A stretch of DNA of 64,000 bases from the NCBI GenBank assembly GCA_963785235.1, contig CAWAUM010000013.1, positions 32,001 to 96,000 on the forward strand. The letters are read 5' to 3'. The notes below the pieces were generated by a model that ran no database searches, was not told the DNA's origin, and saw nothing but the letters and a program-made list of their open reading frames with translations. Source of the DNA: an uncultured delta proteobacterium. GTDB taxonomy: Bacteria; Desulfobacterota; Desulfomonilia; UBA1062. The translations under genes were made by a program, and so were the position numbers. Shown one piece after another: positions 7,336-36,462 of the stretch. The first letter of the stretch is position 1. Every line of letters starts with the position of its first letter.

Positions 7336-7466
7336 GTAATCCAGAGTATAAATTACCTTTCATAATCAACGAAAAAGAGGGGCTAAGAAAAGTGAAGATT
7401 ACATGCCAGTTATGACGTTCTGGTATGAAGTCATAGTTTTCGTATGTTTCAACACAAGATCAACGG
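7336..7466 (+). repeat. Dispersed intergenic repeat, copy 1
   Basis: GTAATCCAGAGTATAAATTACCTTTCATAATCAACGAAAAAGAGGGGC...GATTACATGCCAGTTATGACGTTCTGGTATG...TATGTTTCAACACAAGATCA. Confidence 0.8.
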
Positions 7467-7536
7467 TCTCAGTAGATTGCAAAATCTAAGGAGACTGCGA
7501 ACTAGCAGTCATCTGAAAACTTCATTAGATGTAGCG

Positions 7537-8436
7537 TCAGGAAACCATATTTCCAATAATGTCTTTGACAGGTTTGATCTCCTTTATCAGGGCACTAACT
7601 TGTCCAGCACCAGCGGGATAAAGGTCAAAATCACCTGTAGACCATGCCTTACCGGCGTTCATCATGTTGTATTCCTGTGTGAGGTCCGCACCTGCGGCCA
7701 TGAGTTTAGCCAACTTAGGATTGATAATGGTTCGCATAGCCATGCCGCCCATGGGTAACAAGGTAGTGCTTGCATCGACACAGGCTACGATAGCCTCTTT
7801 CCATGACCTGGATGCCGGACTCTCTTCGGAAGCTAATAAGGCAGTTCCTATCTGCACACCTTGAGCGCCTAGCGCCAGGGCAGCCCGGTACCCCCGACGG
7901 TCTGCGATTCCACCGGCGGCTACAACAGGCACATCGACCATGTCACAAACCAAGGGAATCAGGATCATATTGGTGGACTCAGGTCCTGTTGTGCGGAGAC
8001 CGCCTGATTCTGCTCCAGAAACAACGATCCCGTTCGCACCTGCCTCAGTGGCCTTGGCGGCTAGAGGAGCCGCAAGGATCACATGGAGGACCTTCATGCC
8101 CAGCTCTTTGATTTTTGGATATATTTTTTTAGGGGACCCTGCCGAGGTAGTCACAGTCTTAATACCAGCTTCAGCTAATACCTCGAGTATGGCATCATTG
8201 TTGGGATTCATTGCAATCATGAGATTGGCCCCAAAAGGTTTGTCGGTAAGTTCCCTGATTTCGGCAATCATCTTTCTGACCTTGCTTACATCTGAGACAA
8301 AGCCCAGAGCCAGCATACCGAATGCGCCAGCCTCGGAGACGGCTGCCACCATCTTCGGGTTGTTCAATTCACCGATGGGGCCTTGAATAATAGGATATTT
8401 ACAACCCAGGATATCTAATAGTGTGGTTTTTTCCAT
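7537..8436 (-). CDS. Nitronate monooxygenase/FabK-like FMN oxidoreductase
   Basis: YPIIQG, KPFGANL, VVAAGGIAD, GAQGVQIGT and AGQVSALI motifs. Confidence 0.9.
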   Translation of the reverse strand: MEKTTLLDILGCKYPIIQGPIGELNNPKMVAAVSEAGAFGMLALGFVSDVSKVRKMIAEIRELTDKPFGANLMIAMNPNNDAILEVLAEAGIKTVTTSAGSPKKIYPKIKELGMKVLHVILAAPLAAKATEAGANGIVVSGAESGGLRTTGPESTNMILIPLVCDMVDVPVVAAGGIADRRGYRAALALGAQGVQIGTALLASEESPASRSWKEAIVACVDASTTLLPMGGMAMRTIINPKLAKLMAAGADLTQEYNMMNAGKAWSTGDFDLYPAGAGQVSALIKEIKPVKDIIGNMVS

Positions 8437-8597
8437 AAAGCCTCCATGAGAAACTATCGTTATCTTTCTTCAATCTGAGATTAAATCAAAAACGAATGAA
8501 TCTAACACCATGAATTAATATATAATTGAGAGAAGTTCGTTTGCAACAAAGAGATCACCTCGCATCCAAGGGCTCCTAGCTGTATATGGGGCTCCTA

Positions 8598-8861
8598 TTA
8601 TTCCAACGCTGCAGTAAAGGCTGATCCTGAATAATCTACGGTTATGGATACATTGTCGGAACTAAGACTTTTCTGTAGAGAAACATTCAATCCATTGCAA
8701 TTGAAGAGGATGTCATCGGTGTGCGGCTCATCCAGAGCTGCTTTAATAAATATCCCGGTTCAAACCGCTCCGGCAGGATATAATCTTAAAGAAGGGCGGA
8801 TAGTGTCCCTGCAAAGATTTTCGAGTTCTTTTTTCGCCTCTGGAGTAAGGTTGATCTTCAT
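8598..8861 (-). CDS. HesB/IscA-like selenoprotein candidate (in-frame UGA at 8760-8762)
   Basis: 87 aa if UGA is read through: MKINLTPEAKKEL...LRLYPAGAV-U-TGIFIKAALDEP...ITVDY. GAGGT RBS. GCTC-TGGAT-GAGC hairpin ~20 nt after the UGA. Confidence 0.7.
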
Positions 8862-8882
8862 ATATAACCTCTCATTTTGCAA

Positions 8883-9293
8883 TTATACAATGCGTCTGTT
8901 CTCTTCCTGTTTCTCTCCACGCAGCGCAGAAAGGAAAAGAATTGTCCATATGAAATCTCCCAATCCTCCTAGAAAAGCAAAGGTTGTTATCTGTCTACGG
9001 AAATAAAGGCGGGCAAAAGTGAGAAAGATGATCACTTTGGCCAGGCATCCCATCCAGATGATGCCCTGGTTCTTGTCCGGATCTCGTGACACGAGGTAGT
9101 AACCCAAGCCAAAGACACCCACTGCCCCCCAGAAGAATGCAAAGAATGTCCGTGGCAGAATCCCCGTAATTATATTCTTGGATCCGGATATCAGCCACAT
9201 GGTGAGGCTGGGCATCACCAGGCCATTGAATGCGAAACCAAAATTCCATAGGGAACCCCAATAATAGATTTGCTTCCGAGTTCCAATCTTCAT
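8883..9293 (-). CDS. Small ~4-TM membrane protein, paralogue of 6942..7334
   Basis: GSLWNF...FGLGYYLVSRDPDKNQGIIWMG motif. Confidence 0.8.
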   Translation of the reverse strand: MKIGTRKQIYYWGSLWNFGFAFNGLVMPSLTMWLISGSKNIITGILPRTFFAFFWGAVGVFGLGYYLVSRDPDKNQGIIWMGCLAKVIIFLTFARLYFRRQITTFAFLGGLGDFIWTILFLSALRGEKQEENRRIV

Positions 9294-9431
9294 GAGATCT
9301 ATCCCCCCTTATAATCTCCCTCAAAGGTGTTTTGAATAATAATTCCATATTATAGGATAATAAAACCAAGTATAAAGTTGTCAATTCATATTGTCTAATG
9401 AAATGATCAGGACAAAGAACATCAGTACGTC

Positions 9432-9587
9432 AAGTATAGATTTCGTGCTAAGGCCAATGGTTATTCAAAGAGCATAGATTTCTTTTATAATCATCGCAAA
9501 AGACGGGCATTGAAAATCATAGATTTCATGCCATACTTGGTGCTCAGAGCATGTAGCGTGAACACCATAGATTAGAAAATATTATCT
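9432..9587 (+). repeat. Dispersed intergenic repeat, copy 2
   Basis: GGCCAATGGTTATTCAAAGAGCATAGATTTCTTTTATAATCATCGCAAAAGACGGGCATTGAAAATCATAGATTTCATGCC...CCATAGATTAGAAAA. Confidence 0.85.
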
Positions 9588-9652
9588 CCGGCCCCTGCTA
9601 TGATCAAGATTCAATGGAGGTATACCCTCTTGAATGAATACCTGAGATCACT

Positions 9653-10471
9653 TCATCCCTCCGGCCCTTTATAGACACGGTTTATCTGAAAATCTATGAT
9701 TGCACGGTTGATCGATGGAAACCACCTACCTGTCATTTCAATGAACCTGGCTATGAATCCGGGTATTATAAGGAAACGATCTTTTTGTATGCCCTTAATT
9801 ACTTCATCTGCCACTACGTCAAGAGAGAGAACAGGGACAGTTTGCGTAACGACACGATTCTCTGTTGTACGATAGGTATTCAAATCATCCACCATGGGTG
9901 ATTCAAACTCACCAGGACATACAAGGTGGAACTTGATATTCAGGGGCTTGAGCTCCGCACGAAGGACATCGGTCAATCCGACGATAGCAAACTTGGAAGA
10001 ACAGTAAGCGGCATATCCAAACGTTCCGATCTTGCCTCCTAGGGAAGAGATATTTACTATTCTGCCCTGACCTTTCTTCCTGAAGATGGGTATTATAGCC
10101 TTGGTACAGTTCAGCACGCCGAAATAATTGATATCCATGACTTCCCGGAAGATCGATATAGGGAGCCTTTCAAAGTAACCTTCTCTGAGGATACCTGCGC
10201 TATTGATAAGGATATCCGGCAAGCCAAAAGTATCTGTAATGGTGTTTAGAGTCTTCTCTGTCGCGGTATAATCGGAAACATCACATGGGAATATCTCAAT
10301 TCTCTGACCGGCTATGCATATTGCGGATAACTCATCCTTGACCCTTGCCAGCTTATTCTTGTCCCTTGCGATGAGTGCAAGGTTAGCCCCACTCTTTACG
10401 AGTCGTTGAGCAAGGGCTCTTCCCAGTCCACTTGAGCCACCTGTAATGACAATAATCGAGTCCTTGAACAT
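9653..10471 (-). CDS. SDR oxidoreductase (KDSR-like subgroup)
   Basis: TGGSSGLG, NSAG, catalytic YCSSK, GTFGYAAY. Confidence 0.85.
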   Translation of the reverse strand: MFKDSIIVITGGSSGLGRALAQRLVKSGANLALIARDKNKLARVKDELSAICIAGQRIEIFPCDVSDYTATEKTLNTITDTFGLPDILINSAGILREGYFERLPISIFREVMDINYFGVLNCTKAIIPIFRKKGQGRIVNISSLGGKIGTFGYAAYCSSKFAIVGLTDVLRAELKPLNIKFHLVCPGEFESPMVDDLNTYRTTENRVVTQTVPVLSLDVVADEVIKGIQKDRFLIIPGFIARFIEMTGRWFPSINRAIIDFQINRVYKGPEG

Positions 10472-10549
10472 AAAGGTCTCCCCTCTTGTGCTAAAGTTGT
10501 CATGAACCTATTTAAGATATGTTTTGCAACCCTTCCCATTTATTAAGAG

Positions 10550-11524
10550 TTATATCTTGCTACTGCTTCCGGCAACGGCAGGTACACCATAGGACTTCAT
10601 TACCTCAACGAGAGATAAGATATTTTCCTCCCATACCTTCCGTTCAGTAGTCTGGACCCCAACCATCCCATAACCCAACCCAAGAGATTCATATTTTTCA
10701 ACACCCAATTGACGGTATGGAAGAAGCTGAACTTGAGTTACCCGGTTGTCCAGTTTGTCCCTGATGAATCCAGCTGTTGCTTCGATATTCTCCCTACTGT
10801 CATTGTGACCCGGAACTATGGGTATACGGATAATAAGCGGCTTGCCCTTCTTGGCGATGCTCAGGATATTTTTCAGAATACATACATTGTCCACACCGGT
10901 GTACTCCTTGTGTTTCCCGGGATCCATATGCTTGATATCGGTAATTATGAGATCTGCATAGGGAGCCACCTTAGCCAAAATGCCTGGATGAATAGCAAGT
11001 TCTGTTTCCATACACGTATGAATACCGTGTCTTTTACATTCTTTGAGTATCGCCCGGGTAAATTTCCATTGTATCAGCGGATCGCCTCCCGACAGGGTAA
11101 CCCCTCCACCGGAGTTTTCATAGAACTCGATGTCCGACATCACTACGTCAATGATATCATCAACGGAATATGTTTTTCCCCAGACCATGAGGGCATTCGC
11201 CGGGCAGACATCTGTGCATTTCAGGCAATCTGTACAGATATCCCGGTTGATCCCGGAAATTTTTCCTTCCTGTATCGAAAAGATCTGTTCATTTCCAAGA
11301 GGACAAGAGGAAAGACATTGGCCACATACTTCGATGCCGATGCAACGTGAAGCATACACACCTACTTGTGGATAGGCCTTCAAACTCTCCGGATTGCTGC
11401 ACCATTTGCAATGGAGTGGACATCCTTTGAGAAATATCTCTGTTCTGATACCAGGACCATCGTGGATGGTAAATCTTTGGATGTTAAAAACATAACCCTT
11501 GATGCGATTCTTGCTGGTCCCCAT
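10550..11524 (-). CDS. Glycyl-radical enzyme activating enzyme (radical SAM with ferredoxin insert)
   Basis: HDGPGIRT, CPLHCKWC, two auxiliary Cys clusters, GGVTLSGG. Confidence 0.95.
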   Translation of the reverse strand: MGTSKNRIKGYVFNIQRFTIHDGPGIRTEIFLKGCPLHCKWCSNPESLKAYPQVGVYASRCIGIEVCGQCLSSCPLGNEQIFSIQEGKISGINRDICTDCLKCTDVCPANALMVWGKTYSVDDIIDVVMSDIEFYENSGGGVTLSGGDPLIQWKFTRAILKECKRHGIHTCMETELAIHPGILAKVAPYADLIITDIKHMDPGKHKEYTGVDNVCILKNILSIAKKGKPLIIRIPIVPGHNDSRENIEATAGFIRDKLDNRVTQVQLLPYRQLGVEKYESLGLGYGMVGVQTTERKVWEENILSLVEVMKSYGVPAVAGSSSKI

Positions 11525-11627
11525 CCTGTTAACCTCTCTTGCAAACTGGTCCTATAAGTGATCCTGACATTCACTTGAGGCTGCTGCAGTTTGTTCAACC
11601 ACAGCCTCAAGTGATATGTCTGCGGAT

Positions 11628-14179
11628 TTATTCAAAGGAGAGTTCAGTCCTCCCCATAATGTCATACTGCAGCGGTTTGCTCAGTTCTACAAAGTAAGCA
11701 CTGTAGCCTGCTACTCTTACCAGCAAGTGTTTATATTGATCAGGATTTGCTAGTGCGCATTCCATGGTTTCCCTGCTTATTATATTGAACTGGCTGTGCA
11801 TCCCTTTTCTGTTGAAATAGACATCGAGAAGTGAAATCAGGTTGTCACGGCCTGATTCCCCAGCCACGCAGGTGGGGGTGAACTTCCAGTTGAGCAAGGT
11901 CCCATTTCCTGCTCGTATATGATCAAGCTTAGTGACTGATTTCGCCATAGCGCTTGGCCCTTTGATGTCATGTGATCCGGCCCATGTATGGACAGGCCCA
12001 AGACAATCGGAAACTGGCTCAAGCGCCTTTCTACCGTCGGGAGAAGCCCACTGTACAAGACCCATTGCGACATTGCATGAGACCGAATACACCCCGGGAA
12101 CATACTTACCGCCACGGGCATTGGGCCTGTCTTCGACGTGTTTGCAATAGGTATCGTATCCGAATTTTGCAAGTTCATCTGCATAGTCGTCATCGTTACC
12201 GTAGTGGTGCACTTTATCGCTGTTCACAAGAGCATACAGAGCCTCATGCCCGACCCAGTTGTCCTCGATGGCTTTGAGCAGCTTATCAGCTGTGATTTTC
12301 TTCTCCTCAAATACAAGTTGCTTGATGGTAGCAAAACCATCTGCTACGGTTCCAACCCCTACAGCCTGGGGACCGGTAAAATTGTAATGGGCTCCACCGG
12401 CTGACACATCTATGCCCTTCTCCGTACAATCATCAATGAGTGTAGACAAGTATGGGAGGGGCTTGAGGCGCTGGTGAACACGATCCATGATCTCTATGCC
12501 TTCAACCATCAGATCGACCCAGTATTTCATCTGCTTGTCATACGCATCAAGCACCTGGTCGAAGGATGTAAAATCAGTCAGGCTTCCTGTTGAAGGACCA
12601 ATCTTCTTCCCGATGCCGCCACAGACATCCCATCTGGGGCAATGCTGTCCGCACCCGATGCAACGGCCGTCGTTGATGGCCAGCTCCAAAATCTTTGATG
12701 TGCTGAAATAGGCTGCGTCATGCCAGCCGTACTCCTTCCCCCCAGCATCAATTTCCACGCACCCGACCACATGGTAATTCCGGGAGTCTTCCAGTGTTCT
12801 CCCAGAACGAAGAGATGCAGGTATAGCAGCCTGATCGTTAAACACCTTGGGCTGGCCGGTACCGATGCGAATAACGTTTGCTGTCTTGATTTTCAGCTCC
12901 CGGGGTGTTTTTTCATGCCACCTGACAGCAAACCATGGGACTCCAAGCCGGGTATGAGCATGTGCATCGAGTAACATGAATGTCAGATCATTTGTGGCAT
13001 CGTTTCCCTCTGAGTCAACACCACCGACCGTCAATGTATCTCCGCCCATACCTCTACCCGAGTTCGGTATCACTGTCAGACGGTCTCTAAGCTTGGTCCA
13101 CCAGATATGCTTGATGAAGTAGATCTCAAGGAGTTCCTGGATCGTCTCTTTTGTGGCATATCCACTTTCTATGTCTTTTTGATAAAAGGGGTATAAGTAT
13201 TGATCAATTCTTCCTATGGAGACTGAGTGGCCATTAGACTCGATCAGTACAATCGTGGTAGCAATGAACATGAGTTGGAGCGCCTCCCAGATAGAACGTG
13301 GAGGACTTTCCGACACCCAGTCACAGTTCGAGGCTACCTGCTCCAGGTCTTTTCTGCGTAGAATGTTTTTCTCTTTCCGTGCCATCTCCCTGGCAAGAGA
13401 CGCATATCGTCTCAGATAATTGGATGCTGCTTCAAGGGAGATCAACTCGGCCTGGTAGAATTCCTTCTTCCTGAGATCCTCGTTATGTGACCCTGCCAAC
13501 GCACCCATCTTCTCAATCACTTGCTTCTTGATGCCGCCGAAGCCAAGGGCGAAAAGTTTTTCGAAATTCGGCTGTAGATGGCCTATACCACCATACATGT
13601 AGAGGTTCAGAAGATAAATCCCCCGCCCCACGTGTGTTCCTTTTTCTGGTCCTCAGACATTTCGGCGAGGATAGCCTCCTCAATTGTTTTCCCCTTCCAG
13701 AACTCTTCTATCTCTTTGAGCTTCTTTGTCGACTTCTTCTGCGTATAATATTTATCATGCAAACGCTTGTTCAGAGGATGATTCTTTATCTCGTCCATGA
13801 CCCACGCATAGGAATGTTCAGGGAAAATCGGGGCGGATTTAATGGGTGCTGCCATCTCACCCACAATGAGCTCATCCTCTGTGATGCTAATGTTTACATT
13901 TTTGAGCACATGAGCTAGAGCCAAAGCGCACTTCATTATTTGGGGCTCGTCCACATACTTCCTGTATGCCTCGGTCACAAGGCACGCTCTCTGGTCGTCC
14001 ACTGTAAATTCCTGCGCATGGACATATGATAGGAAACGGTTGACCCTGGGAAAGGGAGAGGGGTTCTCGTCCATTCCAGACAGGGCGATGGGCCACTCCT
14101 TGTCATAAGGGATCAAGCCTATTGGTTTTGATTTTACAGTACCGGCTTTCTCCGGGGTCTGTACTTTTTCTGTGATCAT
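11628..14179 (-). CDS. Glycyl radical enzyme, diol-dehydratase-like eliminase (frameshift at ~13640)
   Basis: ORFs 13607..14179 and 11628..13631 join at an A-run. Motifs GGIGH, ESNGHS, GCVE, GWHDAAYF and the LVRVAGYS glycyl loop. Confidence 0.9.
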
Positions 14180-14283
14180 GGTATGCCTCCTGTATTCTGA
14201 TTGTCTGATTTATCTGTGAGATTGTCCTGATACGTACAATTCAGCTGGATTAAGTCTCTGCCTACTCGATTTCAGCATAATGT

Positions 14284-14646
14284 TCACTGTGCCATCATTT
14301 TCGACAGGGCTGCGGAAAACCACATAAATTCCTTGAAATTGCCCTCGATGATTAGCTTCTTCTCAGTGAGCGCAGCCAGTGAAGCCTCATCATTTTTACA
14401 GGTCATCACCTTGAAACCTGTGTCAGCATCACACCAGACCATGGCTACATCGCTTTTCTCACGATTTCCAGGACTTGAAGAGATGCTTCCTTTGTTGAAC
14501 ACATAGACACGCCCTTGGTCGCTCTTCGTGGTTTTAATTGCGACCTTGAGTTTCTTGTTCTGGATGTACTCCCTGAAAGCCTTGTTCTTCTTCGCAGCCC
14601 ATTTCAACTTACCGTACAGTATAAGGAGTAAAAGCTTGAATTTCAT
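14284..14646 (-). CDS. SCP2-like (sterol-carrier fold) small protein
   Basis: MKFKLLL start after RBS; DVAMVWCDADTG...KKLIIEGN...MWF pattern resembling SCP2-like domains. Confidence 0.6.
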   Translation of the reverse strand: MKFKLLLLILYGKLKWAAKKNKAFREYIQNKKLKVAIKTTKSDQGRVYVFNKGSISSSPGNREKSDVAMVWCDADTGFKVMTCKNDEASLAALTEKKLIIEGNFKEFMWFSAALSKMMAQ

Positions 14647-14685
14647 AAGACACCCCCTTTTTTTCTTGAAACGTATAAGAATCAT

Positions 14686-14701
14686 TACAATATGCATACC
14701 A
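14686..14701 (-). promoter_or_regulatory. Putative sigma54 promoter of the GRE operon
   Basis: TGGTATGCATATTGTA (GG-N10-GT variant), 40 bp upstream of the first operon gene and next to a sigma54 activator gene. Confidence 0.5.
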
Positions 14702-14841
14702 GGTGTTCTGGACGTAGGTGGTAACTGTTTATTATCTTGATATACCTAACATTATTACGTTTAGATGGGTTGAATCTTATTTTTTGAAAAAAGAATAAAC
14801 AACCATATTTGGTGGTTCTACTAAATATAGTTAAAAATGAT

Positions 14842-16452
14842 CTATGTATCCGATGATGACCTTCGCTGAATAGATATTCCAAGCTTCCGCATACGGCCTC
14901 TCAGTGTGTTCGGGTGTAATCCGAGAAGGGTTGCAGCTCCCTTTGCGCCATCGATTCTCCAATCTGTTTTTTCGAGAATCTTGAGGATATGGCGTCTTTC
15001 AATTTCAGAGAGATTCGTGATGGACGGTTCTTCATTAGAGCATGACCCTGGATCTTCGAGCTTTTCACTAAGATGGAGGGTATTACCACTGGTGATGATA
15101 ATGGCACGCTCGATTACATGCTCCAGTTCCCTCACATTACCTGGCCACGTGTAAGATCTCAGTCCCGTCATCGTCTGCTTAGGAATGCTATTGATCTCTT
15201 TGCGCATCTTCCTGGCGAATTTCATTACAAAATGCTCGACCAGGAGAGGAATATCCTCTTTCCGCTCTCTCAAGGAAGGAATGGTGATGGGAAAAACATT
15301 CAGGCGATAGTAAAGGTCTTGGCGGAAGCGCCCTTTCGATGCCTCTTCTTTGAGATTCCTGCTCGTAAGGGCAATGATACGTACATCAACCTTAATGGTT
15401 TTAGGACTGCCAAGTCGTTCGAACTCTCCATCCTGTATAGCTCTTAGGAGCTTAGCCTGCAACTCCAGGGGAAGCTCTGCAATCTCATCAAGAATTATCG
15501 TACCTTTATCAGCAAGCTCGAAACGTCCAATTTGTCTGCTGGAAGAGCCTGTGAATGCACCTTTTTCCCTTCCAAACAACTCGCTTTCAATTAAATTGGG
15601 AGGAAGGGCTGCACAGTTCACGATCACCAATGGGTGATTCTTCCTGGGGCTAAGGTCGTGAATCGCACTAGCGATCATTCCTTTTCCTGTTCCCGTTTCA
15701 CCAAGCACGAGTACTACTGAATCAGTGGGAGCTACCTGCTCCATCCGGAAAAAAACATGTCTAATCGTAATACTCTGCCCGACGATATTATGATATGCGC
15801 GCTCATTTTCAGTCTCTTGGCGTAGGTTTATCTTCTCTATATGGCCCTGTTTGCTGAAGCTCTGCATCTCTTGTAGGGCTGATTCATACTTTTCTTCCAT
15901 TTTCTTGCGGTGCAATGCACTGGTGATTATCTCTCCGGCGAGCTTTAGCCTGGGAATGAGCTCAGCCGGGAAATGTCTTTCCTGTCTCATACATGCAAAG
16001 GACAGCCCGCAGATGGGCTTGCCAGCAACCCTATATGGAATGACAATAACTGATTTCTCACCTATTGCCCGGGAAGACTCTTTGTCCACCGATGCTTCTT
16101 CTGGTAATTCTTCATGTCGGCTGAAGCATACAGTCTCATCATTTAATGCCTTCTTAAAAAGCCATGGGAAGTGTTCGGTGGTGATACTGGGAGGAAAGTT
16201 CTTGAACCCAGGGACAGTGTATTGGTGTGTCCACCGTGCCTCAGTCTGGTTTTCCGACAACTCCCAAAAGGTGCAGCGGTCTAAATCGAGACATTTAGCA
16301 ATTCGCTTCAATCCCCATTCAATCTCCTCATCGACCTCACTGGCAGGGGTGTTGGCGAACTGGGTTGAAATCTCTGATAGTAATTTATCGAGTTCGAGAG
16401 ACTGCTTCGGGCTTATGCCCATTAATGAAGATGTCGAAGCTTTATTCTTCAT
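14842..16452 (-). CDS. Sigma54-dependent activator (GAF + AAA+ + Fis HTH)
   Basis: GETGTGK, ESELFG, GAFTGS, WPGNVREL and a C-terminal HTH. Confidence 0.95.
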   Translation of the reverse strand: MKNKASTSSLMGISPKQSLELDKLLSEISTQFANTPASEVDEEIEWGLKRIAKCLDLDRCTFWELSENQTEARWTHQYTVPGFKNFPPSITTEHFPWLFKKALNDETVCFSRHEELPEEASVDKESSRAIGEKSVIVIPYRVAGKPICGLSFACMRQERHFPAELIPRLKLAGEIITSALHRKKMEEKYESALQEMQSFSKQGHIEKINLRQETENERAYHNIVGQSITIRHVFFRMEQVAPTDSVVLVLGETGTGKGMIASAIHDLSPRKNHPLVIVNCAALPPNLIESELFGREKGAFTGSSSRQIGRFELADKGTIILDEIAELPLELQAKLLRAIQDGEFERLGSPKTIKVDVRIIALTSRNLKEEASKGRFRQDLYYRLNVFPITIPSLRERKEDIPLLVEHFVMKFARKMRKEINSIPKQTMTGLRSYTWPGNVRELEHVIERAIIITSGNTLHLSEKLEDPGSCSNEEPSITNLSEIERRHILKILEKTDWRIDGAKGAATLLGLHPNTLRGRMRKLGISIQRRSSSDT

Positions 16453-16830
16453 ATTGGGGCCTTGAGAACATGCTCCATGATATGTAGAGTACTTTCTTCA
16501 CTTCTTTGTTATATCACTCTTATGCCTGATATAGAACATTTGTAAGATAAAACCACTAGAACATTTCAATGCAGGCTTCAAGAAAACAAGTTCACATGTC
16601 TTAATAATACATCTAACAGACTAATATTAAACATGTTATATTTCCCCTATATCTGTATAGATAAAGCTATTGTGATTAGATTGTGCAAAGATAAAAAGAT
16701 TACATCAGGAGATCTCACTTCAACAGGCTAACTCATGTATGAAATTATTCAGGGGCATCTGATTCAATCCAAAGTATAGATTTCTGCAAAAATGATCGGT
16801 TTCACAAGACCTGAAAAACTAAGGATTGAA

Positions 16831-16962
16831 CCAAGGCCAAAGGTTATTCCAGAGCATAGATTACTATTCATAATCATCAGAAATGAGGGGCATGGAAGAG
16901 TATAGATAACATGCCAGTTCACACGGTTTCTGATTATTGAGTGTTTCTATCCATAATCAACG
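16831..16962 (+). repeat. Dispersed intergenic repeat, copy 3
   Basis: CCAAGGCCAAAGGTTATTCCAGAGCATAGATTACTATTCATAATCATCAGAAATGAGGGGCATGGAAGAGTATAGATAACATGCCAG. Confidence 0.85.
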
Positions 16963-17147
16963 CTTTACCCAAAGTGAACATAACTGCGATAACTCATCGT
17001 TCTTCATTTTTACAGACTAACCATAGATCTCTGTTCAAAACTTACTACTCTCCTCTGATCAAGGGAGAGGGTTTTCCACCCGTACTTTTTGAAGCTTGCT
17101 TGGATTTATAAAGCCTATGGTTCGGAACGGACAACCACCCGGCTTCC

Positions 17148-19021: not shown

Positions 19022-19068
19022 CTTTATTCAGCTTTACAATTCCCTCGGCCTATAATGACCTGATCAGC

Positions 19069-25905: not shown

Positions 25906-25951
25906 TAAAACATCATGTAGATCATATTTTGTGTTTCATTAAGAACTGAGA

Positions 25952-28550: not shown

Positions 28551-28561
28551 CCAGTTCAACA

Positions 28562-29488
28562 ATGAAGGCATGTAATCCTGAAAAGTTACTGAGTCTTGAA
28601 GAAGGTCTCACCATCGGCATGGCCGTGCTGTGCAATCTCATCATCCTTCTTTTCATGCACCTGGGGCAGGCACAAGACATCTTTGTGCTGAACATGCTCA
28701 TCACGGCGGTCATCCTCCTGGTAGCTTGTGTCCACCGGCGTTTTCCCCACACATGGCTGCAGTTTTTCCGGGACTGGTATGTGGTTTCTTTTCTGATCAT
28801 CATCTATCTGGAGAATCGCACACTCATCCCTCTCATCAACCCCCATGAACTGGACAGCCTCGTCATGGCCGTGGACCGGTTTCTTTTTGGCGGGCACGAC
28901 CCCACAGTCCTCATGGAAAGAATAATGTACCCTGCCCTTTCGGAAATACTGCAGATATCCTATGCGAGCTTCTATTTTCTTCCGCTCTCACTGTGTGTGA
29001 TCCTCTATTCCCTCAGGGAGGCCAGGGATGACTTTCATGTTGTGGCATCCACCATATTCATGGGATTCTATCTCTCCTACATCGGGTATTACTTCACCCC
29101 GGTCCTCGGGCCGAGATTCACCATGGAACACCTGCAAAGCGTTCCCCTGAGAGGATTGTGGACCTTTGACTTTCTCAGAAACCTACTGGCACAGACTGAA
29201 GGAAGGATGTACGACTGCATGCCGAGCGGACACGCCCTCGTCTCTGTTCTCACCGTGCTTCTGTCCTGGCGATACGCCAAGAGATTTTTTCCTGTTGCCC
29301 TTGCCTGGACAGTTCTCCTGAGCTTCTCAACGGTGTACCTGCGCTATCACTATGTGAGCGACCTCATTGCAGGCATGGCGCTGGGTGTGCTGGTGTTCCA
29401 GTTCGGCCCCGGCCTCGCGGAGGCAACCATGCGCGGCACAGAGAAAGAACAGGGGATACCTGAATCGATGCAGCTCAGGAAGGAGTAA
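28562..29488 (+). CDS. PAP2-superfamily membrane protein, Aur1/IPC-synthase-like
   Basis: PVLGPR, CMPSGH and YLRYHYVSD motifs; multiple TMs. Confidence 0.75.
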   Translation: MKACNPEKLLSLEEGLTIGMAVLCNLIILLFMHLGQAQDIFVLNMLITAVILLVACVHRRFPHTWLQFFRDWYVVSFLIIIYLENRTLIPLINPHELDSLVMAVDRFLFGGHDPTVLMERIMYPALSEILQISYASFYFLPLSLCVILYSLREARDDFHVVASTIFMGFYLSYIGYYFTPVLGPRFTMEHLQSVPLRGLWTFDFLRNLLAQTEGRMYDCMPSGHALVSVLTVLLSWRYAKRFFPVALAWTVLLSFSTVYLRYHYVSDLIAGMALGVLVFQFGPGLAEATMRGTEKEQGIPESMQLRKE

Positions 29489-29539
29489 CCGGGGTGTTCC
29501 GGTTAGACGAAAGGCCCCTGGTAGCTCCGGCACGTCTTA

Positions 29540-30667
29540 TCAGGGAATAGGTCTTTCATAGATTCGATAGGTTTTGTAGAGCTCAGGGGTGAACGGTTTC
29601 AGTTCATGTATCATCTTTGTATTGGTCTCAACAATCAGCGAGCAATCCGACTCCCAGACATCCGAGAGGAGACTCTGTTCAATAATCTTCAGGTAGAAAA
29701 TCTCATCGATGTGCTGCCCCTGATATTCCGGGAGCACCCCCATGATGACGGTTCTCACCCTCTTGGTTTTTTTTGCTTCTCTCATGAACCTTAAGAGCCG
29801 CCACGGGTAGAGCCTTCCGTTTAAGATCCGTAGTGCCGGATTGACGTCCGGTATGGTGATAACGAAGCCTATGGTCTTTCCATCCTTCTCCGCAAATATG
29901 GTAAATTCAGGGGTGAGTAACATCTTCACTTCGGCAAAGAACATCTCCGTCTGTTTTTCTGTCAGCGGAAGATGGCCCCAGTTACCCTCCCAGGCGGCAT
30001 TGAAGATGTGCTGCACATCTTTCACCCTTTTTGCCAGGTCCCTCTTGTCGAGGTTTTTGAATACCGTGTCCGTTGTGGAGAGAAGGCCCTTTCTCACTTC
30101 ATCCAGATAGGGTACATGTTGGGCGTAATTGACGCGCTTCACCAGGAAACAGTGCCAGTCGATGCATTTTACAAACCCGCATGCCTCGGCAAGATCCTTA
30201 TAATAAGGGGCAAAGTGGAAAAGACCCACTGATGGGATGTTCCCCTCCCCTTCCACCTCGAAACCAACCGAGTCGTAGATGGCGAAGCTCTGCGGGCCGT
30301 TCATAATCTTCTTGCCCTTGTGCTTGAGCCAGGAAGATGCGGTATCGAACAGTGCACGGGCAACCTCCGGGTCATTGACGGCCTCGAAGAACCCGAAGAA
30401 CCCCGTGCCGTTGTCATATTTGTTTTCATAAAGATGATTCACGTGGGCTGTGATACGGCCGACAAGCCTGCTGTTTTTATATGCCAGAAAAAACTCTGCC
30501 TCACCTATCTCAAAAAAGTATCCTTTTTCCCTGTCGAAAAAATTTTTCTGGTCACTGATGATAGGTGGGATCCATGCCGGATCATTCTCGTAGATCCGGG
30601 CTGTCCATGGGAACATCATGAAGTCTTTCATCATGCCCTTAGTATCAGCGCGCCTCACCTCAACCAT
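29540..30667 (-). CDS. Tandem-GNAT protein, bacterial ceramide synthase (bCerS)-like
   Basis: IYENDPAWIPP, VGRITA, GFFGFFE, AWEGNWG, PDVN, MGVLPEYQ, KTYRIYE pattern. Confidence 0.7.
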   Translation of the reverse strand: MVEVRRADTKGMMKDFMMFPWTARIYENDPAWIPPIISDQKNFFDREKGYFFEIGEAEFFLAYKNSRLVGRITAHVNHLYENKYDNGTGFFGFFEAVNDPEVARALFDTASSWLKHKGKKIMNGPQSFAIYDSVGFEVEGEGNIPSVGLFHFAPYYKDLAEACGFVKCIDWHCFLVKRVNYAQHVPYLDEVRKGLLSTTDTVFKNLDKRDLAKRVKDVQHIFNAAWEGNWGHLPLTEKQTEMFFAEVKMLLTPEFTIFAEKDGKTIGFVITIPDVNPALRILNGRLYPWRLLRFMREAKKTKRVRTVIMGVLPEYQGQHIDEIFYLKIIEQSLLSDVWESDCSLIVETNTKMIHELKPFTPELYKTYRIYERPIP

Positions 30668-30809
30668 GTCAATTCACCTCCATCGCACGATAAGATACTA
30701 TATAAGGAGGATGCGCTCAGATGCCAGCCCTATAACGGGAATATGGTGTAAGGATTTGGTGTTAAAAACGTGTATAAAATGATTATATGATATTATATAT
30801 GGGGGAACC

Positions 30810-30974
30810 ATGAGACAGACCATAAATGCCACCCAGGCTGTAAGAACCTTTTCGGAGCTTCTCAATGAGATTAAATACAAGGGAACGACATATACCATAG
30901 AGCGATCAGGTAAACCTATTGCATGTTATCTACACATTTGCATGCCCCTCTTTTTCGATGATTATGAAAAATAA
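30810..30974 (+). pseudogene. Truncated Phd/YefM-type antitoxin
   Basis: MRQTINATQAVRTFSELLNEIKYKGTTYTIERSGKPIA, then reads into repeat copy 4. No toxin gene follows. Confidence 0.7.
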
Positions 30975-31005
30975 TGGCCTGGAATAACTATTGGCTCTGG
31001 CCTCT
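30921..31005 (-). repeat. Dispersed intergenic repeat, copy 4
   Basis: Reverse complement: GCCAATAGTTATTCCAGGCCATTATTTTTCATAATCATCGAAAAAGAGGGGCATGCAAATGTGTAGATAACATGC. Confidence 0.85.
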
Positions 31006-31040
31006 AGGCTCTGCCCAAGATGATAATACATGAGAGATTA

Positions 31041-34000
31041 TTACCATCCATCAAGTACCCTCCGGATAGTCTTAGCCAATACTTTCATTTCTATGGGTTT
31101 CATGACAAATTCTCGAATGCCGATCTTTTCTGTCTTCTCCTTCGAGATATGTTCACTATACCCAGAGCATAGGATGATTGGGATGTCATGCCGGATCTCC
31201 ATAAATTTCTGAGCCAGTCTGTCCCCTGTCATACCCGGCATTGTCATGTCTGTAATAATCAGGTCATATTTGTCAGGACTATCCTGAAAGAGTTTCAGTG
31301 CCTCAACACTGCTTGTTCTCGTTTCTATAGTATATCCTAATTTGCTGAGCATTTTCTCTGCTAGATTTACCAAGACGGGTTCATCGTCTACAAAGAGAAT
31401 ATGCTCCTTTCCTGTCGGGATTGTCTCTTCCTCTTCATGCGTCACTACCTCTTTCATGGATTCAATTTCAGGCAAAAATATTTCAAAAGACGTACCCTTA
31501 CCAGGGGTGCTCTTGCATATTATATTGCCACCATGACTTATCACTATCCCATGAACAACCGACAACCCCAGACCGGTTCCTCGACCCATTTCCTTTGTAG
31601 TGAAATAAGGCTCGAAGATCCGATCAAGAATTTCAGAGGGTATCCCATGGCCGGTATCACTGACCGAAAGTATGAGATAGTTTCCAAGATGAAGGTTCAA
31701 TTCGTGTGCCTCAGTCTCTTTATTGATATTCACTCTCTTCAGACTTATCTTAAGTACACCTCCGGTCTTATCCATGGCATGAGATGCATTTGTACAGAGA
31801 TTCAGAAGAATCTGATTTATCTGCGTAGGATTCGACATGATCAGGCCGGAATCGGTTAGGTCCTGTTGAATATCAATGGTTGTGGGTATAACAGAACGCA
31901 GCATCTTGATGGAATCCTTAACAACAGTACGCAGCGCAATAGGTGAATATTCGACATCTGTTTTTCTGCTAAATGTAAGGATGTGTTTTGCAAGCTCTTT
32001 GGCTCGATCAGCTGCTTTGAGAACTTCTTTGATTTCTCTCTTTGCCTTCTGAGGTTCTGATACATCTTCTATAGCAAGCTCGGAATATCCGATGATAGCT
32101 GAGAGGATATTATTGAAGTCATGTGCAATACCCCCTGCCAGCGTACCTATTGATTCCATTTTTTGAGCCTGTGTAAGTTGAGCTTCCAGCCTGTCTTTTT
32201 CTTTTTCAGCCCGTTTGCGTTCTGTGATGTCCTGGATTACGCCCATAGCACCAACAACCTTACCACTAGAGTCCCGCAACGGCTCCGTTGAAACATTTAC
32301 GTAGATAGCCCGACCATCCTTAGTCTGCCTCATGACCTCGCTATTACTGTATCCAGAACCTGATAACACTTTGGAAATAAGGGCCTTGAACTCACCCCAC
32401 TTCTCTTCAGGTACGATGGGATTGTACTGGCCAATTGCCTCTTTTTTACTCCACCCAAAAATGCGTTCAGCAGCAGGGCTCCAGCTCGTGACTCTCAAAT
32501 CATGATCAAGGGTGAAAATCGCCAGAGGTGAAGCATCAATGATTGCTTGCAGCGCCTGGTTTGTTTTTTGGAGATCTTCCTCCGCTCTCCTGCGGTCGGT
32601 AATATCGACAAAGGTAACTACAATCTGCGCCAGTTCATTATTCTCATCTGAAACCGGAAATGCGCTCACTAAAACCCAAACATCTTCCTTTTTGGTGGAA
32701 CGATGTACTCCCATGACAGCGTTCCAAAAAGGCTTCCTTGTAGCCAGTACTCTCATGACCGGGTATTCTTCCAGAGGCATGGCGGTTCCATTCTCCAGGA
32801 AAAAATGCCAGTCCGGGTCGATTACCTGTTTTCCAAGGATCTGCTCCTCTGTAAGGCCGAGAAGCTCCTGTGCCTGTCGATTGCACGTCTGTATTTGTGT
32901 ATCAACCCCATGCACGACAACTGCAGCCTGAATATTCTGAATCAGCTCACGATACTTTTTCTCGCTGCTACGCAGTGCTTCCTCTGCGTGCTTGCGCTCG
33001 GTGATATCTCGAGTTACGCCCATGATGCCTGAGGGCTCGCCATTCTTATTATAGACGATGTTCATGGTTGCCTCTGTCCAGACGGTGGAGCCATCCTTAC
33101 GGATCATCTCGAGTTCAGAGGTGAATGACCAATTGGGTCCGTGACGATGCCCACTTAACTCCAGAGTTAATTCTCTATCGAGAATAGTTTTGGCCTTCTG
33201 ATAGGATTCTGGTGTCAGGATCTGATCCATGGTCTGTTTCAATGCCTCTTCTGCGGTGTATCCTCTAAGTTGCTGCACAGACGGGGTCACGAAGGTGTAG
33301 CCCAGATTTATGTCAAAGAACCAAATAACATCACGAACATTCTCTCCAAGGATGCGGTATTTCTCCTCACTCTTTCGTAGTGCCTCCTCAGCGAGTTTCC
33401 GCTCGGTAATGTCAGTATTGGTTCCCTCAAAATACAGGATGTTCCCTTGTGTATCATGGACCACATGGACATTGATGGAAATCCAGAACCTGGTCCTGTC
33501 CCTTCGGAATATCTCCACCTCATACCCTTCCACCTTATCGTATTCACGGAGCAGGCGCACCATCTCCTGGCGGTCTGCTGGATTTACGTAGAGCTCCTGG
33601 CCGATATCCTTTACAGAATCGATCATCTCCTGTGGCGAACCGAATCCAGACATCCGCGCAAAGGCAGGGTTCACACTCAGATACCTGCCCTCTGGTGTAC
33701 TCTGGTAGATACCTTCGGTCGCGTTCTCAAAGATCGCCCGATACTTTTCCTCGCTTTCAGCAAGCGCCTCTTCTGCCCTGCGCTTGTCCGTAATATCCCG
33801 GATGCACTCGATTGCCCCGATGACTTGCCCTGAGAAATCATATATGGGATGCGCCCACCCTGAAAGGAATCGTTTCTCCCCCTTGACCACCGGCACATCG
33901 GTTTCACCGATGAGGAGATCGCCTTTGCGCATGATGTTGTAATATATCTTCTCGACTTCTTCCTTGGGCATGAGTACGAGATCGATAAGAATCGGCCGTC

Positions 34001-35243
34001 TTTCACCATAGAAGGGGATAGCATACTCATAATCACCCTTTCCGATCATGTCACTGGGGCTGTAACCAGTCATGTTCTCTATGGCCTTGTTCCAAGCAGT
34101 TATCCTGCCCTGTTTGTCAATGACCAGGGTTGCATCGGGAAGGAACTCAATGATATCAGATAGATGTCGCTCTGATTCTCTTAGCGCCTCTTCTGCTTGC
34201 CTACGCTCGGTTATATCTTCAAATGTAGTATATACCTGGTAGGGCTTATCTTCTCCTGGCTGGAATTGTGGTACTGCATCAATTTCAATCCATTTATACG
34301 TCACTTCCTGCTGATTTTTAATTCCCATGATTGAATTTAATACAGGCTTACCAGTCTGCATTACGATCATAGCCGGGTGTGTTTCACCGGGATATGGTGA
34401 TCCATCTTCATGAATAGCTTCCCAGTTGGGATCAAGAGAGGTATTTCCCTTCAATTGATCTAGATTACATCTAAGAATACGTTCCGCAGCAGGGTTTGCA
34501 TCGATGATCCGACCATCAGAAACCTGATAAACAACACCTTGTACCATTGATTCAAACAGATGACGGTGTTTTTTTTCACTTTCTCGCAAGGATATTTCAC
34601 GTGCATTGAGAACCATATGGGACTTTTGTAAGTAGACATAAAATATTAACAGAAACACCAGTAAGAATGTCAGGGACATGGGTAGGGCTGCATCGGAGAT
34701 CACATCCCATTTCCAGTCAGCTGCTTCGACATCCATCCCAATAACCAAGATCGCTTTTCCTGTGATAGGATCAATCACTGGTGAGAAAGCACTGACAAAG
34801 GTCCCATATTCATCTCTATAAGGACCTACAGTTATTGCTTTACAAGTTAGAAAAACTGATCTTAGTTTTTCAGGTGGATTTTTGTATATAGTTCCTGGTG
34901 GAGAAGCATCCGGATCATTTACTTGGAGATTTTCAGGACCAAAAATTATAGTACTACCTTTCTGAACCACACTATACAGGCTGCGGCAGCCTATATCTTT
35001 TGCTAACTTTTTCATCCAATCTTCCAGTTTCATAAAGCTAGGATTGGTACGATCGTTCAGGGTAAAAGAGAGGGCTTTTACGTCATTTTGATCCACACTG
35101 TCCGCTATAATCTGAATACGGAGAAGAAGATTTTCACGGAGTTGTCTGTCACTTCTTTTGGCTATCCACGATGAAAATAAGATTCCAGACATGGCTATTA
35201 CTATTACTAAGACCCATACCCATCCTTTTCTAAAGGAAGTCAT
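31041..35243 (-). CDS. Hybrid sensor histidine kinase (periplasmic domain, ~6 PAS, HisKA, HATPase, REC)
   Basis: Repeated DITER PAS ends, AHDFNNIL, GTGLGL, TDMTMPGM. Confidence 0.95.
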   Translation of the reverse strand: MTSFRKGWVWVLVIVIAMSGILFSSWIAKRSDRQLRENLLLRIQIIADSVDQNDVKALSFTLNDRTNPSFMKLEDWMKKLAKDIGCRSLYSVVQKGSTIIFGPENLQVNDPDASPPGTIYKNPPEKLRSVFLTCKAITVGPYRDEYGTFVSAFSPVIDPITGKAILVIGMDVEAADWKWDVISDAALPMSLTFLLVFLLIFYVYLQKSHMVLNAREISLRESEKKHRHLFESMVQGVVYQVSDGRIIDANPAAERILRCNLDQLKGNTSLDPNWEAIHEDGSPYPGETHPAMIVMQTGKPVLNSIMGIKNQQEVTYKWIEIDAVPQFQPGEDKPYQVYTTFEDITERRQAEEALRESERHLSDIIEFLPDATLVIDKQGRITAWNKAIENMTGYSPSDMIGKGDYEYAIPFYGERRPILIDLVLMPKEEVEKIYYNIMRKGDLLIGETDVPVVKGEKRFLSGWAHPIYDFSGQVIGAIECIRDITDKRRAEEALAESEEKYRAIFENATEGIYQSTPEGRYLSVNPAFARMSGFGSPQEMIDSVKDIGQELYVNPADRQEMVRLLREYDKVEGYEVEIFRRDRTRFWISINVHVVHDTQGNILYFEGTNTDITERKLAEEALRKSEEKYRILGENVRDVIWFFDINLGYTFVTPSVQQLRGYTAEEALKQTMDQILTPESYQKAKTILDRELTLELSGHRHGPNWSFTSELEMIRKDGSTVWTEATMNIVYNKNGEPSGIMGVTRDITERKHAEEALRSSEKKYRELIQNIQAAVVVHGVDTQIQTCNRQAQELLGLTEEQILGKQVIDPDWHFFLENGTAMPLEEYPVMRVLATRKPFWNAVMGVHRSTKKEDVWVLVSAFPVSDENNELAQIVVTFVDITDRRRAEEDLQKTNQALQAIIDASPLAIFTLDHDLRVTSWSPAAERIFGWSKKEAIGQYNPIVPEEKWGEFKALISKVLSGSGYSNSEVMRQTKDGRAIYVNVSTEPLRDSSGKVVGAMGVIQDITERKRAEKEKDRLEAQLTQAQKMESIGTLAGGIAHDFNNILSAIIGYSELAIEDVSEPQKAKREIKEVLKAADRAKELAKHILTFSRKTDVEYSPIALRTVVKDSIKMLRSVIPTTIDIQQDLTDSGLIMSNPTQINQILLNLCTNASHAMDKTGGVLKISLKRVNINKETEAHELNLHLGNYLILSVSDTGHGIPSEILDRIFEPYFTTKEMGRGTGLGLSVVHGIVISHGGNIICKSTPGKGTSFEIFLPEIESMKEVVTHEEEETIPTGKEHILFVDDEPVLVNLAEKMLSKLGYTIETRTSSVEALKLFQDSPDKYDLIITDMTMPGMTGDRLAQKFMEIRHDIPIILCSGYSEHISKEKTEKIGIREFVMKPIEMKVLAKTIRRVLDGW

Positions 35244-35436
35244 TTGGTAACCCTCCTATGAAACATAGGTGGTAAATTTTATAAAGGCACAACATCTAAA
35301 TAATATACATTCGGTTGTATCTTGGAAGTACTACTTATTGGAGTCAAAAAAAGAGTAAAACCGATTCATATAAATTCATTATAACTAACACTATGGATAT
35401 TAACAAGTATGGTTAAGAAATTACTTCGAACATATG

Positions 35437-35563
35437 TTTTCTAATCTATGGTATCCAGGCTACTAGTTCAGATCGCCGGGTTTCGCATGTTATCAACGCT
35501 TTTCCATGCCCCGCTTTTTCGATGATTATCAGAATAAATCTAGGCTCTGGAATAACCATTGGT
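35437..35563 (-). repeat. Dispersed intergenic repeat, copy 5
   Basis: Reverse complement: ACCAATGGTTATTCCAGAGCCTAGATTTATTCTGATAATCATCGAAAAAGCGGGGCATGGAAAAGCGTTGATAACATGC...CCATAGATTAGAAAA. Confidence 0.85.
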
Positions 35564-35586
35564 CTGAACGAACCCTATCATTGCTA

Positions 35587-35856
35587 TCAGGCAAACAAGT
35601 CTGCATGTGTCCCTGTCCGCTCAAAGAAAATCCGGTCTCCTTCTATTTTGTAAATGAGTAACCAATCAGGCTCGATGTGACATTCCCACCTGTATTGGTA
35701 GTTCCCTCTGAGCTTATGATTCCTATAACGGGGATTCAGATTTTCTTGATTGATCAGGGCTCTTAGCACTTCTTTGATCTTGCCGAGATCGTTCCCTCTT
35801 TTCTTTGCCCTGGTAAGGTCCTTCTCAAATTTTTTCGTGTAAACAGGTGTGAGCAT
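35587..35856 (-). CDS. yafQ: YafQ family mRNA interferase toxin
   Basis: HKLRGNY...WECHIEPDWLLIY...RTGTHADLF. Confidence 0.95.
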   Translation of the reverse strand: MLTPVYTKKFEKDLTRAKKRGNDLGKIKEVLRALINQENLNPRYRNHKLRGNYQYRWECHIEPDWLLIYKIEGDRIFFERTGTHADLFA

Positions 35857-36114
35857 TTAAAGGCCTAGTTTTTTGAACATATCATCTGCATCTCTGCATT
35901 CAACAAGATTTTTGCCTTCATCAGTTTCTTGAAAGACCTTCTGAGTCTCCTCATTGGGAATCATCACATCAAAGGGGAGTCCCCTCCTTAAAGATATCTG
36001 GTGGAAGAACAAGCTGATAGCCTGGGTGGTGTTGAGGCCTAAATGGTTCAATATATCCTCTACGTCCTTCTTGAGCCTACTATCTATCCTTGCTCGCACT
36101 GATGAATCCTTCAT
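35857..36114 (-). CDS. dinJ: RelB/DinJ family antitoxin
   Basis: VRARID...LGL..TQAI...GLPFDVMIPNEET. Confidence 0.9.
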   Translation of the reverse strand: MKDSSVRARIDSRLKKDVEDILNHLGLNTTQAISLFFHQISLRRGLPFDVMIPNEETQKVFQETDEGKNLVECRDADDMFKKLGL

Positions 36115-36132
36115 AAAATACCTCTAAACATA

Positions 36133-36161
36133 TTTGTAGTCCTGATGTGCTACATTGTCAA
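36133..36161 (-). promoter_or_regulatory. TA operon sigma70 promoter with autoregulatory palindrome
   Basis: TTGACA-17 bp-TACAAA, overlapped by TGTAG-N10-CTACA. Confidence 0.7.
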
Positions 36162-36203
36162 GGGCCTTAATCCCTCAGAAATGAGAAACCTGCATATAAT
36201 GAT

Positions 36204-36308
36204 TTACCTGCTCTTCATCACATCAATGACCTCCAAAGGTGCACCAGGCCTGATATACCTGTTCGTGGTCTGCAAAGACTTATGTCCGAGGGCTTTCTGT
36301 AGTATATC
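36204..36308 (-). pseudogene. C-terminal remnant of a tyrosine recombinase
   Basis: DILQKALGHKSLQTTNRYIRPGAPLEVIDVMKSR* (box II LGH...TT..Y). Confidence 0.75.
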
Positions 36309-36316
36309 ATAAAACT

Positions 36317-36458
36317 GATGATCTTGGGTTGAAACATATGAAGCCTCTCACAGCATACCAGACCGTCACAAATGGCATGAAATCTTTAGTTTTCATTACC
36401 CCACTTTTTCGATGATTATAAAAAGCAATCTATGCTCTGAAATCACGATTAACCTTGG
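36317..36458 (-). repeat. Dispersed intergenic repeat, copy 6
   Basis: Reverse complement: TTCAGAGCATAGATTGCTTTTTATAATCATCGAAAAAGTGGGGTAATGAAAACTAAAGATTTCATGCCATTTGTGACGGTCTGGTATG...TATGTTTCAACCCAAGATCA. Confidence 0.85.
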
Positions 36459-36462
36459 GGCA

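Follow-up and report, generated by a model that had tools for sequence, protein, structure and literature searches.

An old family of mosaic intergenic repeats in an uncultured Desulfomonilia lineage as the landing site of an IS1182-family insertion sequence

Introduction

Modular small repeats, such as the pneumococcal BOX elements, the Correia elements of Neisseria and the REPINs, have a modular or fold-back build, are intergenic and non-coding, and are distributed patchily among close relatives. A repeat family of this kind is described here from a stretch of 64,000 nucleotides, hereafter referred to as the window, of the genome of an uncultured delta proteobacterium of the Desulfomonilia lineage UBA1062 (assembly GCA_963785235.1, contig CAWAUM010000013.1, positions 32,001 to 96,000). 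It shares all of these properties, but differs from the three systems in having no known sequence relation, no conserved RNA fold and no identified enzyme that mobilises the repeat itself. A preliminary description of the window took the repeats for the recombination sites of an undescribed module-shuffling system. From our analysis, the repeat is an old, non-coding, mosaic intergenic family of this uncultured lineage. It is a new family, similar to repetitive extragenic palindromic (REP) elements and bacterial interspersed mosaic elements (BIMEs) or to miniature inverted-repeat transposable elements (MITEs), and sequence comparisons show that short GAT boxes within it are the specific insertion target of an insertion sequence (IS) of the IS1182 family and of its MITE.

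Among the ISs that selectively target REP elements, Tobes and Pareja (2006, PMC1525189) name ISPpu9, ISPpu10, ISPsy8, ISPa11 and ISRm19/22. As far as that account describes them, the REP elements and BIMEs resemble the present repeats in being dispersed, intergenic and non-coding, in being hit selectively by ISs and in their link with genome plasticity. The BIMEs additionally resemble them in their mosaic build, with motifs in alternating orientation. The repeats differ from REP elements, which are GC-rich palindromes of 20–40 nt, in being AT-rich and 145–275 nt in unit length. Two Y1_Tnp genes, similar to those of REP-associated tyrosine transposases (RAYTs), are present in the genome under study, but no repeat match or core motif lies within ~1.5 kb of them; a link to IS200/IS605 or RAYT elements was ruled out, as no copies surround either gene. 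The transposase also differs, being of the IS1182 family, whereas the ISs named for REP targeting presumably belong to other families.

A precedent within the IS1182 family is IS1272, whose targets are inverted repeats (stem-loops) (Wan et al. 2017, PMC5678879). As far as that report goes into these features, IS1272 resembles the present IS in its family (by the NCBIfam model), in the inverted-repeat symmetry of its target, in its length of 1.8–1.9 kb and in its short inverted ends. IS1272 reportedly replaces the target inverted repeat, makes no target duplication and has targets without sequence similarity among themselves, whereas the IS described below uses a defined sequence box, inserts at a fixed offset from it and is flanked by a 3-bp duplication.

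Results

Insertion target of the IS1182-family element

A profile was built with nhmmer from the six copies of the preliminary description, iterated three times and run against the whole 3.9-Mb genome (E ≤ 1e-3), which gave 41 matches, every one of them intergenic by crude open reading frame (ORF) calls; the gene context of the copies was taken from such calls. In what follows, G000 is the genome under study, G001 and so on are relatives among the 14 other genomes of the genus, and C1, C5 and so on are contigs. Alignments with flanks revealed the module order of the repeat, which comprises an optional module U (~65 nt), an optional module A (~70 nt), a core (~22 nt), a module B (~55 nt) and a tail (~75 nt). 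A short box around GAT is found at about six points of the full element, in either orientation and at least once in every module, and the boxes form inverted pairs that bound units of 65–110 nt.

For the IS as for its 147-bp MITE, the edge of the element is found 10 nt past the G of a GAT box, and the 3-bp target duplication corresponds to positions 8–10 counted from that G. The ideal site is symmetric (GAT-N4-NNN-N4-ATC), with the middle of module A being a full site and the core a half site. Ends resembling terminal inverted repeats (TIRs) were collected with a loose pattern from IS copies of three sub-lineages in G000, G002, G003, G004 and G010 and from the MITE, and GAT was found at -10 to -8 in 19 of the 39 ends, compared with a per-position background of 2.1%. 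Matching 3-bp duplications were seen in 10 of 13 IS copies, with two differing and one unclear, and in all four MITEs. Insertions of the IS at the core-type half site were observed in seven copies, while two MITEs, at G000 C12:208-355 and on contig C419 of G011, lie at exactly the module-A full site. An empty and filled pair was also obtained, in which the copy at C12:184386 is uninterrupted in G000 and its orthologue in G011 carries a 148-nt MITE with a 3-bp duplication. Among the six main copies of the window, the full site is kept in four and the core half site in five.

An intact copy of the IS was found on C5, encoding a transposase of 502 aa that matches the NCBIfam model NF033551 (IS1182) with 312 bits against a cut-off of 270, over profile positions 2–487 of 488, and that contains the Pfam domains DUF772, DDE_Tnp_1 and DDE_Tnp_1_6. 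The length of the IS is 1810 bp in G004 and about 1860 bp in G000. Three matches in G004 that appeared to consist of module A only proved to be A and core, followed by the IS and then by B. The five IS copies of that genome, 1810 bp each, are 99.7–99.9% identical; their 95-nt flanks have a mean identity of 69% on the left (A and core) and 54% on the right (B), and the 17-nt inverted ends sit exactly where the identity drops. Removal of the IS and one 3-bp duplicate in silico gives the sequence of uninterrupted repeat copies. From the identity profile, the inverted ends at the drop and the restored target, the IS is a discrete unit that landed on several independent occasions at a single point of resident repeats, and the repeats pre-date the IS copies inside them. 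The same three observations excluded the repeat as a deletion derivative of the IS in which its two ends had been joined. At locus L089 (G004 C6 at ~6900–7000), the second half of module A and the core are duplicated in tandem in the left flank of the IS copy.

The transposase was detected in five of the 14 other genomes, four of which carry the repeat and the fifth of which (G001) holds fragments only, while seven genomes have neither transposase nor repeat. G011, one of two repeat-bearing genomes without a transposase match, holds the MITE. The co-occurrence is suggestive only, the genomes being related.

Anatomy, age and distribution of the repeat

The identity between copies within the genome under study has a median of 61%, and no pair exceeds 89%; the copies are old, a point against the interpretation given in the preliminary description. 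Of the 14 other genomes of the genus, six carry the family; a further match was obtained in a different genus of the same taxonomic family, and the 16 genomes of a second taxonomic family gave none. When 185,579 species genomes were scanned for an exact pattern, 17 loci were returned, 14 of them in metagenome-assembled genomes classed as Desulfomonilia or 'delta proteobacterium'. Module B occurs in at least four variants, near-identical U and A modules are combined with differing B variants among the copies, and the module joints fall directly after a recurring motif ending in RTGCC. The unit is longer than the 90–155 bp first given, since some copies have the ~65-nt upstream module (e.g., at 16773-16832) and the ~75-nt tail.

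The earlier statement that the repeat is not a long palindrome is true of the A-B part only; U starts and the tail ends with sequences that are inverted repeats of each other, with similarity over ~30–55 nt. These ends, the inverted pairs of GAT boxes and a patchy distribution in the genus, which suits a mobile element, are what would be expected if the repeats were themselves non-autonomous elements (MITEs) with the GAT boxes as ends, moved in trans by the IS1182-family enzyme or a lost relative, and the GAT box does resemble the inner part of the IS ends, with GTTGA in common. Such an origin would be compatible with a role as target, but we consider it unlikely. No target duplication could be defined at the outer ends of the repeat, and no clean empty site for the repeat itself was found among the checked copies, which were orthologous in close relatives or located at synteny breaks. 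The ceiling of 89% identity implies no recent movement in this genome, both ends are present in few copies only, and the ends of the IS are unlike those of U and the tail. Moreover, no autonomous element with the repeat's own ends was found, and the true MITE of this IS is the different, 147-bp element. A loose search for the terminal motif (≤5 mismatches) gave 453 matches, mostly meaningless.

The stretch ATAATCA is invariant in all 24 aligned copies from six genomes, and the core often forms a GGCATG...CATGCC hairpin, which is present in many copies. Both features could be read as a small structured RNA or as a promoter for downstream genes, with the invariant ATAAT as -10 box, and three minus-strand copies of the window do lie 190–200 nt upstream of co-oriented start codons. 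This reading is very improbable. With RNAalifold, no consensus pair was obtained on either strand of the 24 copies, and the mismatches in the hairpin are not compensated. A match to Rfam had been named beforehand as a finding that would refute the recombination-site reading; at the gathering score none was found in the whole window, and at E ≤ 1 nothing fell inside the copies, the sole match in 30800-36600 lying within the kinase gene. A simple sigma-70 scan found no promoter inside the copies, about half of which face a convergent gene at its 3′ end, and the invariant stretch is accounted for as one half of the IS target site. Sigma-54 and Fur boxes, looked for by eye, did not fit in spacing and key bases. 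The hexamer ATAGAT is not strongly enriched by itself genome-wide. In the whole genome, GGCTGCAAGAT octamers are among the commonest intergenic words, 3–7 times enriched relative to coding sequence, and could point to a further repeat or to a promoter motif.

Synteny and gene modules around the repeats

Synteny was compared at six repeat loci outside the window and in one control region. At five of the six loci, the intergenic region with the repeat is where synteny breaks relative to at least one relative, and in two of them the break lies at the repeat core, whereas the single control, a 9.3-kb stretch of the housekeeping half of the window, is colinear in four of four relatives. To the right of 16831, the DUF5698 gene is present in 14 of 14 relatives and the GRE (glycyl-radical enzyme) side is not; no repeat was found near the DUF5698 orthologue in the examined stretches of G002 and G003. 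Two IS copies (L091 and L094) have non-matching duplications and are flanked by sequences of two different target sites, the pattern that recombination between IS copies would leave. A segment with yafQ and dinJ (Table 1) is duplicated on C1; the duplicate includes the A and core part of the copy at 35435-35566 and has one end at the repeat core, while its other end falls 87 nt short of the next repeat. A contig of 33 kb (C8) is a second version of window 22692-28559, 90–97% identical with five larger indels of 0.7–5.8 kb, and could be a paralogue of this region or stem from a second strain present in the assembly; after the gene for a short-chain dehydrogenase/reductase its arrangement is that of G003.

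The preliminary description proposed that copies in the same orientation enclose self-contained units, in the manner of a cassette array. This was not supported. The glycyl-radical enzyme (GRE) module common to G007 and G004 covers only 10549-14658 within the repeat interval 9591-16831, and a recurrent breakpoint at 28553-28562 has no repeat. Orientation is independent of the neighbouring genes, with ~12 of 21 A-bearing copies pointing at a co-oriented downstream gene, as counted from the context table.

A dedicated system, in which a site-specific recombinase would move modules between repeats acting as analogues of integron attC or pdif sites, would account for the synteny breaks and for the end of the toxin-antitoxin duplication at the core. 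Three co-oriented minus-strand copies of the window lie 21–66 nt past the stops of a 710-aa gene, of yafQ-dinJ and of the kinase gene, and on C5 a U-B copy is followed at a distance of 197 nt by a short tyrosine-recombinase ORF. As with attC and pdif sites, the repeats stand between self-contained units, including a toxin-antitoxin pair, whose content differs between relatives. Several points nevertheless make such a system highly improbable, and we found no sign of a dedicated cassette recombinase. The window holds no tyrosine recombinase (Phage_integrase) by Pfam of its ORFs, and the five of the genome, on C2, C5 and C12, are not linked to the repeats. Neither an integrase nor an Xer-type site is associated with the repeats, and an attC-type conserved fold-back was not found on either strand. 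By eye on the alignment, no attC boxes (RYYYAAC/GTTRRRY) were seen at the copy ends, and the conserved motifs did not match the 11-6-11 layout of pdif. In an integron, the sites would be co-oriented, one per promoterless cassette; along the window the strands run three minus, three plus and three minus, with no consistent relation to neighbouring genes, and the spacing of 0.9–14 kb spans whole operons with their own regulators.

Breaks inside the repeat, a pattern named for testing in the preliminary description, were seen at the core in two loci and at one end of the yafQ-dinJ duplicate; the modules conserved in relatives have their ends away from repeats, and the duplicate does so on its other side. 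Contigs of four DNA runs covering 19000-38999, which were short and of low depth, gave one joint linking two copies (30975-35543); it was not counted, as one side has only 20 nt, 4 extra letters are present and it may derive from a third copy. Hence, of the proposed recombination sites there remains a real genome-wide family, without Rfam match and often at synteny breaks, whose motif is the substrate of a DNA-breaking enzyme. That enzyme, the one seen acting on the site, is the IS1182-family DDE transposase, and not a tyrosine recombinase or cassette integrase. The tyrosine recombinase ORF on C5 (G000 C5:581505-582122, 205 aa) comprises the catalytic domain only, and the 45-kb stretch around it is rich in short repeat copies.

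Repeat copies and other features of the window

The features located are given in Table 1. The six copies of the preliminary description were confirmed at their places by the repeat search and by the iterated nhmmer profile, with E-values from 2e-21 to 1e-35, and in the repeat search they constitute two direct families (D1 and D2) and the inverted pairs I1–I9, 74–85% alike over 52–126 nt. Three shorter minus-strand copies had been missed. The 'partial copy at 4528' has real similarity to the family, but is a U-type module on the minus strand that borders a degenerate IS1182-family element at the 5′ end of the latter. The reported absence of copies from the housekeeping half holds for the window, with no nhmmer match in 36459-64000.

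Table 1. Positions of repeat copies, IS-related elements, target sites and a duplicated segment; positions without a contig name refer to the window.
Feature	Position	Strand	Evidence or remark
Repeat copy: A from model position 16, core, B	7338-7467	+	nhmmer E=2e-31
Repeat copy: A, core, rare B variant B3	9449-9591	+	nhmmer E=1.7e-26; inverted pair I2, 76% over 96 nt
Repeat copy: U (16773-16832), A, core, B2	16773-16964	+	nhmmer E=1.3e-29 for 16831-16964
Repeat copy: A with 4-nt deletion, core, divergent B	30865-31000	-	nhmmer E=2e-21
Repeat copy: A, core, B3	35435-35566	-	nhmmer E=1.1e-28
Repeat copy: A, core, B1	36314-36458	-	nhmmer E=1.4e-35
Short copy: core, B, tail	1034-1153	-	nhmmer 1076-1153, model 67-144; family D3
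Short copy: core, B, tail with terminal motif	1999-2124	-	nhmmer 2041-2124, model 62-144; family D3
Short copy: B from model position 85, tail	2744-2844	-	nhmmer 2784-2844
U-type module at 5′ end of degenerate IS	4505-4582	-	same U variant ahead of A in two copies of relatives
Degenerate IS1182-family IS	2843-4504	-	84% nt identity over 1665 bp to intact C5 copy
MITE, 147-148 bp	G000 C1:402387-402533		IS-type inverted ends, matching 3-bp duplication
MITE, 147-148 bp	G000 C2:265295-265441		IS-type inverted ends, matching 3-bp duplication
MITE, 147-148 bp, inside module A of a repeat	G000 C12:208-355		IS-type inverted ends, matching 3-bp duplication
yafQ-dinJ segment duplicated on C1	35480-36227 = C1:390093-390840	-	~99.5% identity, 4 mismatches; Pfam YafQ_toxin, RelB
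Full IS target site, middle of module A	16859-16875	.	sequence match
Full IS target site	35524-35540	.	sequence match
Full IS target site	36414-36430	.	sequence match
Core-type half target site, IS would insert just after	7396-7407	+	sequence match
Core-type half target site	9521-9532	+	sequence match
Core-type half target site	16904-16915	+	sequence match
Core-type half target site	35484-35495	-	sequence match
Core-type half target site	36374-36385	-	sequence match

The stop codon of the ORF at 6942-7334 lies 2–4 nt ahead of the first plus-strand copy, while the copies at 30865-31000 and 35435-35566 lie 41 nt past the stop of the hybrid kinase gene and 21 nt past that of yafQ, respectively. 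The copy with module U is located between a sigma-54 activator gene and the conserved DUF5698 gene, as identified from the Pfam matches of the neighbours. The best match of the copy at 7338-7467 is the inverted copy at 36314-36458 (pair I1, 79% over 126 nt), and the B3 variant is common to those at 9449-9591 and 35435-35566. The best-matching pairs of the window are nested and inverted (7338/36314, 9449/35435 and 16831/30865), an arrangement that could be due to nested insertions, an inversion or chance. The short copy at 1034-1153 carries the terminal inverted-repeat motif at 1034-1051 without mismatch, and that at 1999-2124 has the motif without mismatch to its 14-nt core. The degenerate IS is truncated on its 3′ side, where it directly abuts the copy at 2744-2844, and contains the transposase fragments 3062-3883 and 3954-4286 (Pfam DDE_Tnp_1) with several in-frame stops.

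A few other features of the window were observed. The GRE gene (11628-14179, minus strand) is split into an N-terminal ORF of 190 aa (13607-14179) and an ORF of 667 aa (11628-13631) with an overlap of 25 nt, which could be a frameshift, a pseudogene or an assembly error. The aminotransferase ORF at 26956-27726 covers only profile positions 142–359 of 361, the N-terminal part being missing, and just upstream of it the window has a 680-bp insertion relative to C8 (26234-26913). Between leuS and the PBP1A gene, a palindrome with 33-nt arms lies at 42200-42268 and breaks the colinearity with relatives at 42157-42307.

Discussion

The reading that we favour, with a probability of about 0.6, is that the old mosaic repeats are a landing pad for the IS1182-family element and a likely rearrangement hotspot, with IS recombination behind the module borders, and that they are not integron-like. 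Highly similar IS copies would collect in the repeats, and recombination between them, with later loss or decay of the IS, may reshuffle the DNA on either side. The repeats would then end up at the borders of variable gene modules, and A and B variants would be re-assorted at the core. Recombination between IS copies and their loss may in this way account both for the repeats at module borders and for the re-assortment of A and B. The target specificity within the repeats is observed in the insertions themselves; the role as hotspot is one that we infer.

Several observations weigh against this reading. With respect to the target, no box is present at 20 of the 39 TIR-like ends, of which most are the far side of a half site and some are chance pattern matches. 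The distribution is also imperfect, as G001 has transposase fragments and no repeat at the threshold used, and no transposase match was found in the repeat-bearing genomes G005 (71% complete) and G011 (88% complete, 530 contigs). At present the six window copies are all free of an IS, and only one degenerate IS is nearby (2843-4504). IS-free chimeric repeats need a precise or near-precise loss of the IS, of which no instance was observed, and that IS targeting led to the module borders is an inference. At one of the six loci (L100), gene order continues unbroken through the repeat in both G011 and G002, and the repeats may simply survive better in variable regions. Lastly, the invariant motifs within a family otherwise 61% identical suggest selection of unattributed cause.

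A further-reaching possibility, which we regard as doubtful, is that the repeats and the IS1182-family element form a landing-pad system for exchanging gene modules, in which the boxes are kept to steer transposition into harmless intergenic pads. Pairs of ISs in the pads would move or recombine the DNA between them, and loss of the ISs would leave re-assorted pad halves at new module borders. If true, this would be a DDE-transposase counterpart of the module traffic of integrons and pdif sites in an uncultured anaerobe lineage.

On the landing-pad and hotspot reading that we favour, the tempting integron-like system is replaced by a more ordinary and testable picture, in which a lineage-specific mosaic repeat serves as the homing site of an IS1182-family element. 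The fixed-offset rule is unusually sharp for a poorly studied IS family, although we do not claim it as unpublished. If the link to synteny breaks holds genome-wide, the repeats would mark the sites at which these bacteria of sediment and peat rebuild their flexible genome, and they would help in reading fragmented metagenome assemblies, because contigs often end at repeats.

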